From the NCBI GenBank assembly GCA_964384645.1, contig CAYLKL010000001.1, forward strand, positions 70,856 through 134,371: a stretch of 63,516 bases of DNA, written 5' to 3'. Origin of the DNA: an uncultured Candidatus Saccharibacteria bacterium. GTDB taxonomy: Bacteria; Patescibacteriota; Minisyncoccia; Phycocordibacterales; UBA9973. The number at the start of each line of letters is the position of its first letter. Position 1 is the first letter of the stretch. The position numbers and the translations under genes are program-made. This document shows, in pieces, positions 1,998 to 31,189 of this stretch. The notes under the pieces were generated by a model. That model was not told where the DNA came from and did not search any database. It worked only from the letters and a program-made list of their open reading frames with translations.

Positions 1998-3089
1998 ATG
2001 GGAACGCGAACAGTTAAATACAACAAAGAAAGCAACTCGGCGTTTTCGAAAACGCTGAAGGCACGAGTAGATTATTACTTTGAAACCAACAATATCAAAA
2101 AAACTGGCGGAAAAGACTTACTCCTTAAGGCGATAATTCTACTAACTTTAGGGTTTACTACTTATGGATTGATTATTTATTACCTCTCCAATGGATACAT
2201 TCTAATTCCATTTATTCTGAATTTCTTTATGGGATTTATTCTTGCGGGTATTGGCTTTAATGTTATGCATGACGCAAGTCATAAATCTTTTTCTGAAAAA
2301 TCTTGGGTCAATGATCTTATGTTGCTAACACTTGAGCTTATGGGGGCTTGTTCTGTTTTTTGGGTAATAAAACATGTTTTTCTTCATCATAGTTTTGTAA
2401 ATGTTGAAGAATTAGATGACGATATCCATACAGGAATTTTAAGAATGGGCCCAGAGCAAAAACTAAAATGGTTCCATCCTTACATCCAAAGATATTGGCT
2501 TCCGGTAGTCATTTTATATGCCATGCTTTATATCTACTGGGTTTGGGTAAATGATTTTAAGAAATATTTTTCTAGAAAAATCCACAACTACGAAATCCCT
2601 AAAAAGAAATTTACATTTCAAATGCATTTTATTTTTTGGTTCAGCAAAATAAGTTATTTTTTCTGGACAATAGGTCTTCCTTGGATTGTAAGTGATCTTG
2701 GTACAGCTGTTTTGTGCTACCTTCTAATGTCTAGCACGACTGGAATCATTATTGCTCTTGTGTTTCAATTGGCACACATTGTTGAGGCTAGTAAATTTAC
2801 GAAATCCTTTGATGGAGAAATGTCTCATTCGTGGGAAGAACAGCAACTATTTGAAACTATTAATTTTCAAACCGATAGCAAAATACTACGCTTCTATATC
2901 GGTGGCCTTAATCATCAAATAGAGCACCATTTATTTCCAAATATTTCTCATATTCACTATCACAAGATCCAGCAAATCGTAGAAAAAGTATGTGAAGAGT
3001 TTGGAGTTCCTTATGTAAATTTATCCTTAACTAAAGCTATGAAATCGCACTTTCAAAAACTAAAACAGCTAAGTAAAAAATCTACTTAG
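1998..3089 (+). CDS. Membrane fatty-acid (acyl-CoA/acyl-lipid) desaturase, linoleoyl-CoA desaturase-like
   Basis: Three His boxes (HDASH, HVFLHH, HQIEHH), multiple TM segments, and a GGLNHQIEHHLFP motif. Confidence 0.9.
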   Translation: MGTRTVKYNKESNSAFSKTLKARVDYYFETNNIKKTGGKDLLLKAIILLTLGFTTYGLIIYYLSNGYILIPFILNFFMGFILAGIGFNVMHDASHKSFSEKSWVNDLMLLTLELMGACSVFWVIKHVFLHHSFVNVEELDDDIHTGILRMGPEQKLKWFHPYIQRYWLPVVILYAMLYIYWVWVNDFKKYFSRKIHNYEIPKKKFTFQMHFIFWFSKISYFFWTIGLPWIVSDLGTAVLCYLLMSSTTGIIIALVFQLAHIVEASKFTKSFDGEMSHSWEEQQLFETINFQTDSKILRFYIGGLNHQIEHHLFPNISHIHYHKIQQIVEKVCEEFGVPYVNLSLTKAMKSHFQKLKQLSKKST

Positions 3090-3090
3090 C

Positions 3091-3120
3091 AAAAACACCC
3101 CTTTCGTAGGGGTGTTTTTT
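3091..3120. terminator. Bidirectional intrinsic terminator
   Basis: aaaaacacccct-ttcgt-aggggtgttttt between convergent genes. Confidence 0.85.
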
Positions 3121-3132
3121 AATTAAGAAAAT

Positions 3133-3828
3133 CTAAAAAAGTAATTTCTGTGCAAAGTTATGAATTATAAACAAAGCTTCTTTCTGCTTTTCGTTTGCTA
3201 TCTTTTTTGTATTTTCAATTATATTTTCTAAAGTATTAAAATTTTGTTCTGTATTATCAAGTGGACTAATAGAAATATTGTAATTTTTATAAAGGTTTTC
3301 ATATTCTCGAATCACTCCCTCAAGTGGGTCTTTTTCATTTCTTGCTAACTTTTTAATTGTATTAAAAATAAAACAAATAAAAAAATCTATTCGATAATTT
3401 TTATCTACTGCTACTTTTTTAGAATTAAAAGTAGTCTCCCCTACAGGAAGATCAATTCCAAATAATTTCTTCCCGTCTTTAATTTTATACGCGCTTGCTA
3501 AGGGACATAAATATATATCTACAACCGAAATCACCTCCACTGTTTTAATAAGCATTGCCGTATGTACACCGTTGATTGGTGCATTCTGTGGCGCCTCACA
3601 GGAGTGAATTAAAGTCCCTAATCTTCTGTAGTTTTCAAATCGATTTTTATAGACCTCTTCATACTCTTCATCTTTAAATGTAAACCAAATATCTATGTCA
3701 CTATAAAAATCAGCATCTCCACGTGCAACTGACCCAAAAACATGAGCCTCGATTGCGCTATCAATAAATAGATTTCCTAACTTTTTTAAAATTTCCTCTC
3801 TTGTTGAAACTAGAACATATTTATCCAT
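3133..3828 (-). CDS. Nucleotidyltransferase (Pol-beta superfamily) with C-terminal helical domain
   Basis: FGSVARGDADFYSDIDIW matches the GS-x-D-x-D NTase motif. Confidence 0.8.
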   Translation of the reverse strand: MDKYVLVSTREEILKKLGNLFIDSAIEAHVFGSVARGDADFYSDIDIWFTFKDEEYEEVYKNRFENYRRLGTLIHSCEAPQNAPINGVHTAMLIKTVEVISVVDIYLCPLASAYKIKDGKKLFGIDLPVGETTFNSKKVAVDKNYRIDFFICFIFNTIKKLARNEKDPLEGVIREYENLYKNYNISISPLDNTEQNFNTLENIIENTKKIANEKQKEALFIIHNFAQKLLF

Positions 3829-3851
3829 GGGATTGATTATAACACCCTGGA

Positions 3852-4430
3852 TTATTCATTCTCTAAAATATCAGACGGTAATATTTTTATATTATCTGGA
3901 TTAAAAACTACATATTGATCTGTAAAATCGCTATCGTGATTTACTATTATTCCGTCATATTGCTCTTCTAATTGTTTTTTTGTAGCCCCACCATAATAAA
4001 GGTCCATTAGCTGTTGGTGGTTTTCTAAAACAAGAGGTTTGGTAATTTTAATAAAACAAGAAAATGTCTTAACATTTGATTCGTGATTGTTTAAATATTC
4101 TGTCCGATCTTTGGAAATCAAATCATTTTCTGAATCCTCTCTAGAAAGAAGTCTTTCAAATCGATCTGTGGAATCAATATAATTCTGCTTCATATAATCT
4201 ACGGTAGCTTTTCTATCTGAAGAAAAATAAACACCCCAGGAAGACCAATCACCCTCTTCTGAAGACTTAAGGTTTAAACCTTCAAAATTTTTAATAGTTG
4301 TTGCATGGAAGACCTTTAAAGGTCTTCCATTATTATCAACAACCACACTACCTTTAAACCATTTTTCAAAATCAGGATCTTCTTGTTTCTTTGTCTCTTT
4401 TATTTCTAACTCTTTATTCGCAAATTCCAT
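3852..4430 (-). CDS. ADP-ribosyltransferase-like protein resembling the ART-PolyVal domain
   Basis: WFKGSVVVDNNGRPLKVFHAT...GVYFS...ITKPL...YDGII...YVVFNPDNIK follows the recalled ART-PolyVal pattern. Not database-checked. Confidence 0.65.
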   Translation of the reverse strand: MEFANKELEIKETKKQEDPDFEKWFKGSVVVDNNGRPLKVFHATTIKNFEGLNLKSSEEGDWSSWGVYFSSDRKATVDYMKQNYIDSTDRFERLLSREDSENDLISKDRTEYLNNHESNVKTFSCFIKITKPLVLENHQQLMDLYYGGATKKQLEEQYDGIIVNHDSDFTDQYVVFNPDNIKILPSDILENE

Positions 4431-4528
4431 TTAAAAACTATACCAGATTTTAAAAATATAGGGTAAGCAAAAGTTTTACTGCTTAGTTGCCTCAACTAAA
4501 AAAAGACCACGCAAGAATGTTTAATATT

Positions 4529-4688
4529 GAGAGAATTGATCCTTACAGGATCAGTGCAGGTTTCCCATTTTTTAAAAGCACAGCTTTTAAAAAATAAGGG
4601 AGAACCTTTTCAATTCTCTCGCGCAAGCAAAGCAGTTTGCTTGCTTAGTCACCCCATAAAAAAATCTCCCATTTGGGAGATTTTTTTA
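4529..4688. repeat. tRNA-His 3'-mirror element with 25-nt hairpin insert, plus terminator
   Basis: 4609-4620 ttcaattctctc + 25 nt (4621-4645) + tagtcaccccat is an inverted copy of the tRNA 3' end. Hairpin apex at 4671-4674. A second arm gagagaattga lies at 4529-4539. Confidence 0.85.
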
Positions 4689-4763
4689 TGGGGTGACTAG
4701 AGAGAATTGAACTCTCGATACCGGTTCCACAAACCGGAGTTTTACCACTAAACTATAGTCACC
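4689..4763 (-). tRNA. tRNA-His(GTG), with G-1 and encoded CCA
   Basis: Cloverleaf with anticodon arm ccggt-tt GTG ga-accgg and 8-bp acceptor including G-1:C73. Confidence 0.95.
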
Positions 4764-13550: not shown

Positions 13551-13687
13551 CCCGCCAGGAATCGCTTCTCCCTGTGGTCGAAACGCTTAATTTTTATAGT
13601 CGCTTCGCTCTTTAAAAATTAGCGCCTTCGGTTCGATTCCTGTCGGGGCTTAAATCTAAAGTCCGAATGCGTTGCATTCGGACTTTA
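13551..13687. repeat. tRNA-Arg(TCT) 3'-mirror palindrome plus terminator
   Basis: cccgccaggaatcg (13551-13564) and ggttcgattcctgtcggggc (13630-13649) copy the tRNA 3' end in opposite orientations. Terminator ctaaagtccgaatgc-gtt-gcattcggactttag. Confidence 0.85.
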
Positions 13688-13696
13688 GTATTTTTG

Positions 13697-18057: not shown

Positions 18058-18144
18058 GGAGGTGTGGCTGAGTGGTTGAAGGCGGCAGTCTTGAAAACTG
18101 TTGTATGGGAAACCGTACCGCGAGTTCGAATCTCGCCGCCTCCG
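18058..18144 (+). tRNA. tRNA-Ser(TGA)
   Basis: gcagt-ct TGA aa-actgt arm, long variable arm. Confidence 0.95.
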
Positions 18145-18257
18145 CAAAAATAAAAAACCGTCCCAAAATGGGCGGTTTTTTATTATGCGGAGGCGAGAAA
18201 GCAAACTGCTTTGCTTGCGTGCGAAATTCGAATAGGATAAAGTTCAAAATTTTCGCC
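18145..18257. repeat. Terminator plus tRNA-Ser 3'-mirror with 25-nt hairpin insert
   Basis: tgcggaggcg (18186-18195) + 25 nt (18196-18220) + gcgaaattcgaa (18221-18232). Degenerate sense arm gttcaaaattttcgcc at 18242-18257. Confidence 0.85.
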
Positions 18258-23096: not shown

Positions 23097-23378
23097 CCGG
23101 TAGGAATCTTTCGTTACGCGAACAGTATACCTTTTCGGTGAATTCAGAATAAATTCTTTATTCACAACGAAAAGCTTTTCAATTCCTACCCGCAAGCAAA
23201 GCAGTTTGCTTGCTCGGGATCACTTGTGGTCACGAGTTACTAAGTCTACTCGTATTGCTCCGCAACACTGCGTGGACTAAGTACTCTCGACCCCGCCTCG
23301 CCTGTTTTCGAAACTCAAACATGGCTCCGGCCATCACAAGTACAGAAAAAAGCGGAGCAGTCCGCTTTTTTCGTCTTG
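23097..23378. repeat. tRNA-Arg(GCG) 3'-mirror element with 25-nt hairpin insert and nested structured segment
   Basis: ccggtaggaatc (23097-23108); ttcaattcctac (23178-23189) + 25 nt (23190-23214) + cgggatcac (23215-23223); terminator aaaaaagcgga-gcag-tccgctttttt (about 23346-23371). Confidence 0.85.
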
Positions 23379-23450
23379 TGATCCCGGTAGGAATCGAACC
23401 TACATTTTAACTTCCGCAAAGTCATGTCCTATCCATTGAACGACGGGACC
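23379..23450 (-). tRNA. tRNA-Arg(GCG)
   Basis: tgact-tt GCG ga-agtta arm, acceptor GGTCCCG/CGGGATC. Confidence 0.9.
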
Positions 23451-23487
23451 AATAGATAGTTAGACATTATCAGAAATGTGAAAAAAT

Positions 23488-23514
23488 AAAAAGGCGGAGA
23501 ATTTCTCCGCCTTT
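23488..23514 (-). terminator. Terminator after the helicase gene
   Basis: aaaaggcggaga-at-ttctccgccttt. Confidence 0.75.
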
Positions 23515-23539
23515 GAACACTTTAAAAACTTTCTTTTTA

Positions 23540-25378
23540 TTACACATTTTCCCAACCTGGAAAATCTTGGTAACTACGTTTTAAATCAGCCGGAAGTTTA
23601 GGATCTTCTTTATACCTTAACCTGTACTCCCTTCCCCTGCCATCAATTTTGAGCTTTTTTATAGCCTTACTCGCTTCTTCCCATGTCGCGTATTTTTCTG
23701 GCTTCTTTTTTCCATAAAAATAAATAGAGAACCCGGGAAAATTCGGATAGTATTGCTGAGGGTTTCTTGGAAGCTTAGGATCTTCAGTATAACGGTCATA
23801 ATAATTTTTATAAGTTAGACCGAGATTTCTTACAGAGACAGAAGCTTCTTCCCATGTGGAATATTTTACCCCTACAGCATTTTTTCCTAAAAAATTACTC
23901 CACCCGGGAAAATCTTTATAGTACCTAGATGGTAAACTACATAACCGTGGATCTTTTTTGTAATTCTCAGAATAGTTTTTCCTAGAGTAAATCCCGAATT
24001 TTTCTACAGCCTTCCTTGCTTCTTTCCATGTTGGATACCAGGATACCTTGAATCGACTATTGTGACTAACGCGACCTTTAGTTAATTCATCTATAGTGTG
24101 AACGTCATAGATAATTTTAAGTCCATCAATTTCCAATAATTCTCTTGGGTCACGAATTGCACCGCCTTTTAAATTCCTACTTGTTTTAAAATGTTCCGGC
24201 AACACAATCGCGCCGCAAGTAATTTCGGAAAAAAGAATTGCAAGCTTGCGTCGAGTGGATTCCTTATAAATAAAATCAACTACATGGGCGATTTTATTTG
24301 GGTTGTCCGGATCAAGCCGTAAGACCCTTCCGCCACGTTGTTCAGCGAAAACCGCAGATTGAGTTGGTCGCAAGTTTAAGCAAACTGAAACTCTTGGCTC
24401 ATCAAATCCTTCACTAAGAAGATCACAATTTACCAACACGCTGAATTTTCCAAGATGATAATCATGAAGAATTTCCCCACGAACTTTCTTAGACAAACCT
24501 CCATGAATTCCGCGAGCTTTAATACCGCTTTTTACAAAAGTAGCTACAACATCGTGAACGTGTTGTACGGAGTTTGCATAAATGATTGTGCATTCTCCTT
24601 TGAAATACTTTTTGTATACCTTAAGTGCTGTATTATTTACCTCATTTGTATTAATCAACTTCTCAAGATCTTTGGTCTCGTAATCGCCTCGCTTTGATGC
24701 AGTATTAGATAAATCGACATCAAGTTCCACAAGCATAACCCGAACCCCCACTAGCAGCCCTAAATGAATTGCCTCTCCAAGTTCCATAGTATAGATTTCA
24801 TGAATAAGCAATTCGTTTAAGTGCTTATAAGCACTAAATCCAGGAGTTGCAGAGAATCCAAGTATGATTGATTTTTTCTTTGCCTTTTCAACAAGTTTTG
24901 TAATGTTAGGAGTAAGCGCACGATGACCTTCATCAAGAATAATATAATCGTAATCATCAATCTTTATCTTTCCTGATTGAATTTGAAGCACCCAAGAAGT
25001 ATAAGTACAAACAGTAATTTGATTTCCGTATTCCTTATAATCTGTATTGATGCGTCCCACACTTAATTTTGGTGCAAAGGTTTTTAGACTCTTATACGTT
25101 TGTTCTACTAATTGAATTCTGGGAACTAAAATAAGTGCCCGAGATTTGTGATTGGCGACTGCACGTATGATTTGCCCAAACAAGACTGTTTTACCAGTTC
25201 CTGTAGGTAATTTGATGTAACCACTAGTTAAGTTCTTTTTTAGAAAACCATGAACTGCCTCAAAGACATTCATCTGCTTTTCACGAAGAACTTTTTTACC
25301 AGTGCGATAATGACTGCGTATGTACACAGCCATTCGATGGATAGTTCCAGTGAGGAGCTTTTGAAGAATTTGGTTCAT
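23540..25378 (-). CDS. SF2 DExH helicase with three C-terminal integrase-repeat-like units
   Basis: LPTGTGKT, DEGH, SAT, QRGGRVLR, and 3 x Y-x-TW-x-EA...Y-x2-DP-x-L...FPG. Confidence 0.85.
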   Translation of the reverse strand: MNQILQKLLTGTIHRMAVYIRSHYRTGKKVLREKQMNVFEAVHGFLKKNLTSGYIKLPTGTGKTVLFGQIIRAVANHKSRALILVPRIQLVEQTYKSLKTFAPKLSVGRINTDYKEYGNQITVCTYTSWVLQIQSGKIKIDDYDYIILDEGHRALTPNITKLVEKAKKKSIILGFSATPGFSAYKHLNELLIHEIYTMELGEAIHLGLLVGVRVMLVELDVDLSNTASKRGDYETKDLEKLINTNEVNNTALKVYKKYFKGECTIIYANSVQHVHDVVATFVKSGIKARGIHGGLSKKVRGEILHDYHLGKFSVLVNCDLLSEGFDEPRVSVCLNLRPTQSAVFAEQRGGRVLRLDPDNPNKIAHVVDFIYKESTRRKLAILFSEITCGAIVLPEHFKTSRNLKGGAIRDPRELLEIDGLKIIYDVHTIDELTKGRVSHNSRFKVSWYPTWKEARKAVEKFGIYSRKNYSENYKKDPRLCSLPSRYYKDFPGWSNFLGKNAVGVKYSTWEEASVSVRNLGLTYKNYYDRYTEDPKLPRNPQQYYPNFPGFSIYFYGKKKPEKYATWEEASKAIKKLKIDGRGREYRLRYKEDPKLPADLKRSYQDFPGWENV

Positions 25379-29917: not shown

Positions 29918-30061
29918 CATTGAGAGAAAATAAGAAATGCTTCTTATTTTCGATACATGTCCGTGCCAGAACGTTGTTTTTGTTTTATGAAATAAAGGCA
30001 AAAACCGTGAGGCGGGCTCGCGAGAAAATTCTGTCAGGAATTTTACTTGTGAGGACAAATA

Positions 30062-31189
30062 TTAATGCCCATGCGAATGAACGTGGCTGTGCCCTTTGCC
30101 TTTATACCCCTTAAGATATATTGTGGCAAAAAATGTTACAACTGGCACAGTTAATATGAGTCCGACGCTTCCCACTATTGCTCTTATTATTTCAGTGGCA
30201 AAAACTTCAGAATTTACTGACATTAATAGAGTTGAAGGTGATGCATAAAAGTACAAAAGTACAGGCAATGCCGATCCTGTGTACGCCAAAACCAATGTAT
30301 TAACCAACGCACTTACATGTTCTCGCCCTATTCTAATGGCTCTTTTGTAAACTTCTCTTCTGGTTAGATTTGGATTAGCGTTAAATAATTCTGTAACCAC
30401 TGCTGATTGAGTGACTGCAATATCATCTAAAACACCAAGAACTCCAATAATTATTGCCCCCAAAAGAAGGCCCTTAAAATCAAGAGATCCTTGTGTGTTG
30501 AAATTTAGATAGACAGATTCTTCTGTCGCAAAACCTGAAAGATTGTTTAAATCAACCGCTAAATAGGCCAAGACTCCAGTTAAAGCCACGGCAAACATTG
30601 TTCCAAAATAAGAAACAGCTGACTCTCTATTAAATCCGTGAGTAAAAAAGATTGCAACAAAAAGTATAATTCCTGCAACTAAAATACTAGAAAGCACGGG
30701 CGACCACCCAGCCAAAAGCCCAGGCATCAAAACATAAAAAAGTGCAAAAAAACTTCCCGCCAATGCCATAAGAGACCTTACCCCCTGAAATCCACCAAAA
30801 ATTATAACAACAAAAACAAAGAATATAATAAAGAAAATCAAAGTATGCATTCGGTAGAAATCTTTTACTTGAAAAAATCCTCTTCCTTCTAATGTTAGAA
30901 AATAATCAAAAAATAATTTATCACCCTTTCTAAGCTTTAAATAATCATCTTTTATAATAATCACTTCTTTAGCTCTGGGCCCATTTAAAATTTCTACTTT
31001 TATAGACTGAAGCTTTTCGTTTGTTTCAGTTCCTTCTATTTCAACAGACTCAACAGACAAAACCTCCAAGACTTTACCCTTCCAAGTAGCTTGATACTCA
31101 TCATAAGCCTCTTGGGCAAATGTTGTATTTGTCGAAAAAGCACAAACCAAAAAGACAGCTAAAGTAAAAATTTTTTTGAAGATATTCAT
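30062..31189 (-). CDS. YibE/F family membrane protein with His-rich tail
   Basis: IGVLGVLDDIAVTQ, GREHVSALVNTLVLAYTG, and C-terminal GHSHVHSHGH. Confidence 0.9.
   Translation of the reverse strand: MNIFKKIFTLAVFLVCAFSTNTTFAQEAYDEYQATWKGKVLEVLSVESVEIEGTETNEKLQSIKVEILNGPRAKEVIIIKDDYLKLRKGDKLFFDYFLTLEGRGFFQVKDFYRMHTLIFFIIFFVFVVIIFGGFQGVRSLMALAGSFFALFYVLMPGLLAGWSPVLSSILVAGIILFVAIFFTHGFNRESAVSYFGTMFAVALTGVLAYLAVDLNNLSGFATEESVYLNFNTQGSLDFKGLLLGAIIIGVLGVLDDIAVTQSAVVTELFNANPNLTRREVYKRAIRIGREHVSALVNTLVLAYTGSALPVLLYFYASPSTLLMSVNSEVFATEIIRAIVGSVGLILTVPVVTFFATIYLKGYKGKGHSHVHSHGH

Follow-up and report, generated by a model that had tools for sequence, protein, structure and literature searches.

Behind three tRNA genes of the window, by which we mean the whole 63,516-nt stretch of DNA analyzed here, a short hairpin splits an antisense copy of the 3′ end of the neighboring tRNA. 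The flanks of the hairpin follow the individual tRNA gene and the hairpin itself hardly varies; hence, the locus raises the question of what kind of entity combines a constant part with a copy of its neighbor. An earlier note on this DNA offered two answers, namely an RNA that pairs with the tRNA and displays the hairpin as a protein-binding handle, or the footprint of a tRNA-targeting miniature mobile element. We address this question by comparing the three loci with each other and with loci bearing the same hairpin in other genomes.

Tail units behind the tRNA genes of the window

The 22-mer GCAAGCAAAGCAGTTTGCTTGC of the hairpin occurs in the window as exact copies at 4623–4644 (+) and 23192–23213 (+) and with one mismatch at 18197–18218 (−), i.e., three observed matches against none expected by chance from shuffles of the window. 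All three copies are downstream of tRNA genes (Table 1), with the strand reading GCAG being convergent with the tRNA. Sequence comparison bears out the earlier claim that tRNA-His, tRNA-Ser and tRNA-Arg(GCG) are each followed by an antisense copy of their own 3′ end (hereinafter the mirror) that is split by 25 nt, and in all three copies the split falls exactly where it had been placed, between the T-stem and acceptor strands at positions 65/66. At tRNA-His, the + strand of the mirror reads ttcaattctctc, the 25-nt insert and then tagtcacccca, corresponding to tRNA positions 54–65 plus 66–CCA with zero bases lost or doubled. The tail copied by this element is thus the last 23 nt of the gene, including the encoded CCA. 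Across the window, a full CCA is encoded by tRNA-His only, with six of the seven tRNA genes ending in N73-C-A, as is likewise the case in most relatives (…cac followed by a…).

Other parts of the earlier description stand in modified form. The inserts had been reported as identical; they agree in length and position but not strictly in sequence, as those of tRNA-His and tRNA-Arg differ at the first base only, and that of tRNA-Ser shows three differences from these, one of them within the stem. The mirror had been placed just beyond the terminator of the tRNA gene, which does not hold at tRNA-Arg(GCG), where a hairpin-less element intervenes. Finally, the further T-arm copy described at each locus is indeed present in all three, and relative to the tRNA it constitutes a direct repeat of the tail.

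Altogether, tail units follow five of the window's seven tRNA genes, the exceptions being tRNA-Leu and tRNA-Val. The units behind tRNA-His and tRNA-Arg(GCG) share a core that we term type B, and that behind tRNA-Ser is without a core. The hairpin-less unit of type A nested at tRNA-Arg(GCG) is flanked by ATCACAAG (the tRNA end) and CCACAAG, which form flanking repeats of 7–8 nt.

Table 1. Positions of tRNA genes and parts of tail units in the window.
Feature	Positions	Strand	Basis and remarks
tRNA-His(GTG), encoded CCA	4689–4762	−	ARAGORN; Rfam tRNA, 68 bits
Terminator-like palindromic hairpin L, between tRNA-His tail and mirror	4657–4688	.	Sequence
His mirror, acceptor part	4646–4656	−	UGGGGUGACUA on the tRNA strand, complementary to tRNA 66–CCA
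His hairpin module, 25 nt	4621–4645	−	9-bp stem; loop CUGC on the tRNA strand (GCAG on +)
His mirror, T-arm part	4609–4620	−	Complement of tRNA positions 54–65
His type B core	4540–4608	−	Alignment of 23 type B units, RNAalifold; fold z = −6.8
His direct repeat of tRNA tail, truncated	4529–4539	−	T-loop plus T-stem 3′ strand, ends at 65
Third unit type behind tRNA-Arg(TCT)	13551–13695	−	Uninterrupted mirror, GAGCGAAGCGA loop
tRNA-Ser(TGA)	18058–18145	+	ARAGORN, Rfam
Minimal unit behind tRNA-Ser(TGA)	18186–18257	+	Fold weak, z = −1.5
Ser anti-acceptor	18186–18195	+	
Ser hairpin	18196–18220	+	
Ser anti-T	18221–18232	+	Followed by a 10-nt loop replacing the core
Ser direct repeat	18243–18257	+	Degenerate
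Type B unit with hairpin behind tRNA-Arg(GCG)	23097–23223	−	z = −4.7
Arg direct repeat	23097–23108	−	
Arg core	23109–23177	−	
Arg anti-T	23178–23189	−	
Arg hairpin	23190–23214	−	
Arg anti-acceptor	23215–23223	−	
Type A unit without hairpin	23224–23340	−	Nested between tRNA-Arg terminator and type B unit
tRNA-Arg terminator hairpin	23341–23377	.	Loop A-CUGC-U, same as hairpin module
tRNA-Arg(GCG)	23378–23450	−	ARAGORN, Rfam
Type A unit without hairpin behind tRNA-Lys	29919–30065	+	

Directly downstream of the tRNA-His unit, where its direct repeat is truncated, is a gene for a 192-aa free-standing ART-PolyVal ADP-ribosyltransferase (Pfam E = 3e-13) adjoining one for a 231-aa Pol-beta-type nucleotidyltransferase (window 3133–4430, −). 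This pair may represent a small island or a toxin–antitoxin-like pair.

Covariation, distribution and tRNA linkage of the hairpin

Sequence variation shows the hairpin to be a genuine 9-bp helix whose pairs covary and whose tetraloop is invariant. The window and a further 1.09 Mb of loci contain 151 perfect 7-bp stems with a GCAG loop, as compared to at most 27 for any other tetraloop. Behind tRNA genes we recovered 64 distinct versions of the hairpin with at least 19 different, fully compensated 7-bp stems (e.g., ACATGAA, GAGCCGA, AACAAGA, GAGTCAA and AAGCGAA), and the loop, CUGC on the tRNA strand, is constant across all 64. In the 9-bp helix 99.5% of the cells are paired and compensatory changes are seen at all nine pairs. 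These include the outer two pairs, which lay outside the selection criteria and are paired in 62 and 64 of the 64 rows, respectively, with five to six pair types. A loop of the form A-CUGC-U also caps some of the terminator hairpins that separate the tRNA from the mirror. Change in the hairpin is further seen at short range: a strain that is ~98% identical in DNA across this region (locus L121) has five changes within the His hairpin and another three in the loop of the terminator, with the adjacent 335 nt (4285–4620) being without any change. A second hairpin resembling the module, gGGTAAGCAAAAGTTTTACTGCTTAg, is found at 4466–4490 of the window; the degenerate hairpin of L121 (CGCAAGCAAAGGTTTTACTTGCT) seems to have been partly converted to this sequence.

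When one genome per species was scanned for exact matches to the 18-base core of the hairpin, at least 119 loci were recovered. Among the matches listed, the bulk are from Patescibacteria (the Saccharibacteria, Paceibacterota, Kaiser-, Nomura- and Moranbacteria groups), with others from Campylobacterales, Elusimicrobia and a few Firmicutes and gamma-proteobacterial bins. As the earlier note anticipated, the copies keep company with tRNA genes: 70 of the 127 listed copies have a convergent tRNA within 300 nt and three more have a convergent tmRNA. Across these 73 convergent loci, the hairpin is most often positioned at the 65/66 junction; thus, the copies are neither mostly away from tRNAs nor at random offsets. 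More than 20 tRNA identities are involved in the listed loci, where the flanks match their own tRNA and are joined without loss at 65/66, the mirrors matching the adjacent tRNA well. The flank copies contain the genomic trailer (e.g., cac followed by aatt) and not the added CCA, indicating that what is copied is the gene or the precursor rather than the mature tRNA. In a minority class the module instead lies within the trailer, 5–6 nt from its start, and caps a hairpin formed by the tRNA end and its complement. Roughly one in four non-ascertained tRNA genes in the sampled loci is followed by a unit. Only a single match was obtained among 2.9 million viral contigs, on which ground a phage origin is rejected.

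A few occurrences depart from this pattern. In Campylobacterales the same 18-mer is part of a different, ~145-nt element (L030 about 3380–3640; L051, L102, L015, L023, L043 and L103) with a covarying outer helix (GAGCC/GGCUC, GAGAU/AUCUC and GAAGC/GCUUC), which is flanked once by a 35-nt direct repeat of a tRNA-Lys tail on the tRNA's own strand; other copies of this element are not near tRNAs. At two loci (L045 305–322 and L073 6112–6129) the module lies 4–20 nt upstream of a tRNA, next to its 5′ end, and is oriented in the same way as that tRNA. The Firmicutes bin Fimivivens (L016 about 2900–3150) shows tandem module-bearing units behind tRNA-Ser, one copy having the compensated stem AAGCGAA/TTCGCTT.

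Architecture, fold and turnover of the units

Comparison of these loci indicates that the hairpin is an optional modular side arm of small non-coding tRNA-tail elements and is found on several core types. The units are about 75–200 nt long, non-coding and strongly folded, and immediately follow tRNA and tmRNA genes. In the direction of the tRNA strand, their layout is X, L, rcX with the hairpin between its acceptor and T-stem parts, a core of type A or B, and X again, where X extends from the T-loop to the tRNA 3′ end, often plus the trailer, L is a loop or terminator, and rcX is the inverted tail (the mirror). An RNAalifold analysis of 23 aligned type B units (the His and Arg units of the window and 21 others) gives the order anti-acceptor, hairpin, anti-T (GGAAUCGAAA), P3, GUACUG, P2 and tRNA-tail copy, with P3 (CUUUUC...GAAAAG) enclosing a variable hairpin and the P2 hairpin having a GUA loop. 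The type A core, which occurs with or without the module, has the form GGUCACGAGUUACUAAGU...ACUAAGUACUCUCGACCCCGCCUCGCCUG...ACAUGGCUCCGGC on the GCAG strand; a UNCG tetraloop in its conserved CUCCG motif was considered and rejected for lack of conservation in the closing pairs. Many units (e.g., L036, L053 and L100; window 13600–13620) share another recurrent loop motif, which reads UCGCUUCGCUC or UCACUUCGUUC on the GCAG strand and tops variable hairpins in their cores and spacers.

The distal X is a perfect direct repeat (17/17) in 15 of 71 loci and matches at 13/17 or more in 35 of 71 (shuffled controls, 9.4), and in the same comparison the mirror is perfect in three loci only. The direct repeat can reach past the trailer into the terminator (e.g., L087). 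The complete unit L068:1371–1492 is predicted to fold into P1b, the hairpin and P1a (z = −4.5). Its closing stem of 9 bp with two G.U pairs unites the anti-acceptor with the acceptor copy; next come the hairpin and a 9-bp stem of anti-T with the T copy, which encloses P3 and P2. The predicted fold thus shows rcX of the complete unit paired with the distal X, resulting in a stem that resembles the stacked acceptor/T helix of a tRNA. From this stem the hairpin branches off at the same point, and from the same strand, as the D and anticodon domain in a real tRNA. As this exit is at the 7/49 side of the tRNA, equivalent to 65/66 on the mirror, it accounts for the fixed position of the hairpin. The alternative that the 25 nt are a secondary insertion into an existing mirror is rejected in favor of an integral arm of a three-way junction. 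In the window, the direct repeats are truncated (9–11 nt for His and 12 nt for Arg) or degenerate (Ser). The His repeat pairs with the T-arm part of its mirror. In all three window copies the repeat ends at position 65 or shortly thereafter, so that pairing in cis cannot extend to the acceptor part of the closing stem; in the His and Arg units, the inner stem and the hairpin alone fold in cis.

These features bear on the first interpretation in the earlier note, under which a read-through or separate RNA would pair in trans with the 3′ half of the mature tRNA and the constant hairpin at the resulting three-way junction would recruit a modifying or cleaving protein. Its descriptive part, i.e., the constant hairpin, its position and the tRNA-tracking flanks, holds in the window plus about 70 other loci. 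Moreover, the loop is invariant, and the anti-acceptor arm of the three window copies has no cis partner and is perfectly complementary to the tRNA. However, the arm of the complete unit pairs in cis with its own direct repeat, and most loci combine a perfect cis partner with an imperfect mirror. Further, the arm copies the trailer and terminator of the gene rather than the added CCA, pairing would demand the unfolding of the acceptor and T stems, and no partner protein is linked within 4 kb. Hence, we consider such a trans-acting guide highly improbable.

The turnover of the units is seen at tRNA-His loci whose orthology is set by the neighboring VKOR gene. The window and L121 have a type B unit with the hairpin; L122 and L149 have a type A unit with the hairpin, that of L149 showing a wholly different stem with the same loop and the same 65/66 junction; L146 has two type A units without the hairpin; and L127 and L131 have no unit. 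Likewise, at a Saccharibacteria tRNA-Phe, one contig of the wastewater run X48 is without the hairpin-bearing second unit. The variation in unit type at tRNA-His loci together with this strain without a unit indicates that units are gained and lost, though the presence/absence polymorphism could result from deletion between direct repeats rather than insertion. Units also occur in tandem and nested arrays. Taken together, the direct repeats of the tail, the tandem and nested arrays, the differing orthologous loci and the strain polymorphism mean that a miniature mobile element fits better than a guide. On short time scales the units are not highly mobile: two strains (L190 and L191) share with the window tRNA-Arg and both of its units, with three substitutions across the two, even as their upstream genes differ (window 23451–23560). 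No empty sites were found in near-identical strains of the window's organism, in which the elements are stable. The 5′ side of tRNA-Arg is a recombination breakpoint in the comparison of L190 and L191 with the window.

The changes observed within the units also offer some indication of the strand that folds. In 105 of 122 units the folding energy favors the tRNA strand, but the difference of 6.4 kcal/mol is matched by 6.3 kcal/mol in composition-preserving shuffles; being fully explained by base composition, this asymmetry was dropped as evidence. Counts at the level of individual pairs also lean to the tRNA strand: on the GCAG strand, the outermost two pairs of the stem are A.C in 10 cases and G.T in one; transitions between mirror and tRNA number 21 vs. 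12 and changes in P2 12 vs. 7; and a C>T strain variant in the Arg mirror gives a U.G pair on the tRNA strand. Against this, the Campylobacterales copy is in the opposite orientation relative to its tRNA. Thus, the folded strand is weakly indicated to be the tRNA's own.

Such a lean to the tRNA strand at the level of individual pairs would suit the main rival of the mobile reading, wherein the units are small RNAs co-transcribed with the tRNA and released by the tRNA-processing enzymes, with spread being only local, through duplication and unequal crossing-over between tail repeats. In such a trailer RNA the closing stem and 3′ end would imitate the tRNA tail, and the hairpin would be a structural or protein-binding arm. 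The tRNA-like closed stem predicted for the complete unit and the existence of tandem arrays are consistent with this, as are metatranscriptome contigs that run unbroken from tRNA-Arg through the hairpin, although these contigs are unstranded and might include DNA carry-over. RNA runs for the window's own organism yielded related tRNA sequence only, and the strong terminator that often stands between the tRNA and the unit argues against simple co-transcription.

The closest known analogue of the units, and a precedent for a trailer RNA, is the E. coli rtT/RttR (RF00391), with 178-bp tandem non-coding repeats behind tyrT–tyrV on the tRNA strand, like the units described here. In the K-12 region that we analyzed, the rtT unit follows the same layout: its end repeats 19 nt of the tRNA-Tyr tail in direct orientation, from the T-loop to the CCA, and it holds a complement of the T-stem/acceptor junction, GGGGAAGGAT, and a GCGAAGCG loop resembling loops in the cores of our units, and has GGCGAAGCGCGC at a place comparable to the above-mentioned UCGCUUCGCUC/UCACUUCGUUC loops. 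However, its complement is 10 nt long and not split by a hairpin, unlike the mirrors here, and it belongs to a different sequence family: the RtT model gave no match at the gathering score in the window and none with E up to 10 in the His and Arg loci. To our knowledge, rtT is known only behind tRNA-Tyr in enterobacteria; in contrast, the present units are found behind more than 20 tRNA identities plus tmRNA in many lineages. Local duplication is insufficient to place the same cores and 18-mer behind so many tRNA identities in several phyla. The differing core types at orthologous loci also count against this reading. We therefore see a trailer RNA that spreads by such means as somewhat unlikely, but a trailer-RNA role and the mobile reading do not exclude each other.

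Linked proteins, known systems and a possible insertion cassette

The earlier note envisaged an element mobilized in trans and a co-distributed protein. All-against-all clustering of the 1870 ORFs within 4 kb of the 127 copies revealed no linked recombinase, transposase or other protein, with the recurrent families being housekeeping only (EF-G, ClpB, RluD, RuvA and TsaD) and present in at most 12 loci. A crude regular expression for the serine-recombinase catalytic motif matched zero ORFs across 177 sources in the 1.09 Mb of loci; accordingly, a large-serine-recombinase element is rejected for want of a match in cis to this crude pattern. An IS110-type element with a bridge RNA is rejected given the housekeeping neighbors and the lack of a recurrent ORF within 4 kb, and a T-box-like or tRNA-sensing synthetase leader is rejected on account of the downstream ORFs, which encode the ART-PolyVal ADP-ribosyltransferase and two proteins without a Pfam match.

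The lack of an integrase near any of the roughly 127 copies also weighs against deriving the units from double-stranded integrative elements, whereby they would be CIME-like mini-islands, flanked by att sites and devoid of an integrase, left behind by tyrosine or large serine integrases acting on the T-loop-to-3′-end segment of tRNA genes. A direct repeat of this segment is the classical attL/attR signature, and the mirror and hairpin would then be binding sites for the integrase or an accessory factor. Indeed, the units resemble the islands in the T-loop sublocation of tRNA and tmRNA genes and CIMEs in the target segment, the bounding direct repeat and the use of tmRNA. Nevertheless, they differ from these in being only 75–200 nt in length, in carrying no integrase or cargo, and in having the site repeated internally in inverted orientation alongside conserved folded cores, whose helices display compensatory changes that double-stranded protein-binding sites would not need. 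Such remnants are thus quite unlikely.

With respect to other short repeats, the units are like REP/REPIN, MITEs and the Rickettsia palindromic elements in being short, multi-copy, hairpin-forming non-coding DNA. Unlike these, they have no constant terminal inverted repeats of the MITE type, no fixed short target duplication and no RAYT nearby, and their ends are copied from the individual target gene. As the ends vary with the tRNA and no protein family is linked within 4 kb, both a MITE and a REP–RAYT system are rejected; nor are the units an already catalogued element of this kind in Rfam. There, no family was found for the units in the window, in three loci or in 20 non-Patescibacteria loci. 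In the literature that we searched, neither the 18-mer nor its complement was found, and a search by topic returned nothing on such elements. Hence, this is a family of tRNA-tail elements that is widespread in Patescibacteria and for which we found no description in Rfam or the literature searched.

Another architectural parallel is offered by integron attC sites and the CTXphi attP hairpin, in which inverted copies of the site fold into a stem that imitates the target duplex. Upon integration the resulting order is site, inverted site, site; the strand is marked by asymmetric extra-helical features, and the cassettes form arrays. Compared by architecture alone, the units resemble these in the order of sites, the strand-marking asymmetry and the arrays. 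They differ from attC in having no linked IntI/Xer-type enzyme, no GTTRRRY, no carried gene and a tRNA tail as the target, and their side feature is a whole 9-bp hairpin in place of single bulged bases. As the flanks are tRNA tails rather than GTTRRRY and no neighbor protein recurs within 4 kb, an integron cassette with attC is rejected.

By analogy to these systems, the X-L-rcX-core-X order could be the outcome of a comparable folded-strand integration: a folded single-stranded circle, its X:rcX stem imitating the target duplex, would be recombined into the tRNA tail. The CUGC hairpin would then serve as an asymmetric, sequence-specific handle that marks one strand and the acceptor/T boundary, and would be read by a candidate recombinase or other protein supplied in trans. 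Should it be the tRNA strand that folds, the unit would, in addition, be transcribed together with the tRNA to form a tRNA-like trailer, in the manner of the E. coli RtT. Going by the sequence comparisons presented here, the best-supported reading, at roughly even odds (about 50%), is that the units are insertion cassettes directed to the tRNA tail, in which the hairpin serves as a constant asymmetric handle. We count against it that no excised or circular form of a unit was seen, as well as the absence of both a linked protein within 4 kb and a match to the serine-recombinase motif. The truncated direct repeats of the three window copies, the low mobility of the units over short time scales, the weak strand evidence and the alternative of deletion between repeats likewise weigh against it. 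Building on the cassette reading, we more tentatively posit that the units might be protein-less mobile cassettes of 75–200 nt that exist as folded single strands of DNA or RNA, with the CUGC hairpin being the handle for a trans-acting recombinase, and that the E. coli rtT might be a domesticated or fossil relative. As the stem of such a cassette reproduces the last ~20 bp of the chosen tRNA gene, its address would be written in nucleic acid.

The units are abundant in genomes that are otherwise pared to a minimum. They also introduce long inverted repeats at tRNA genes, which break assemblies and may be mistaken in annotation for att sites or pseudo-tRNAs. Should the units prove to be trailer RNAs, the long-enigmatic RtT RNA of E. 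coli would gain a large family, and the CUGC loop, the cores and the tRNA-like closing stem would be conserved parts open to direct tests. If they are mobile, they would represent DNA aimed at tRNA tails via a folded copy of the target, the address of which would be readable and possibly rewritable.
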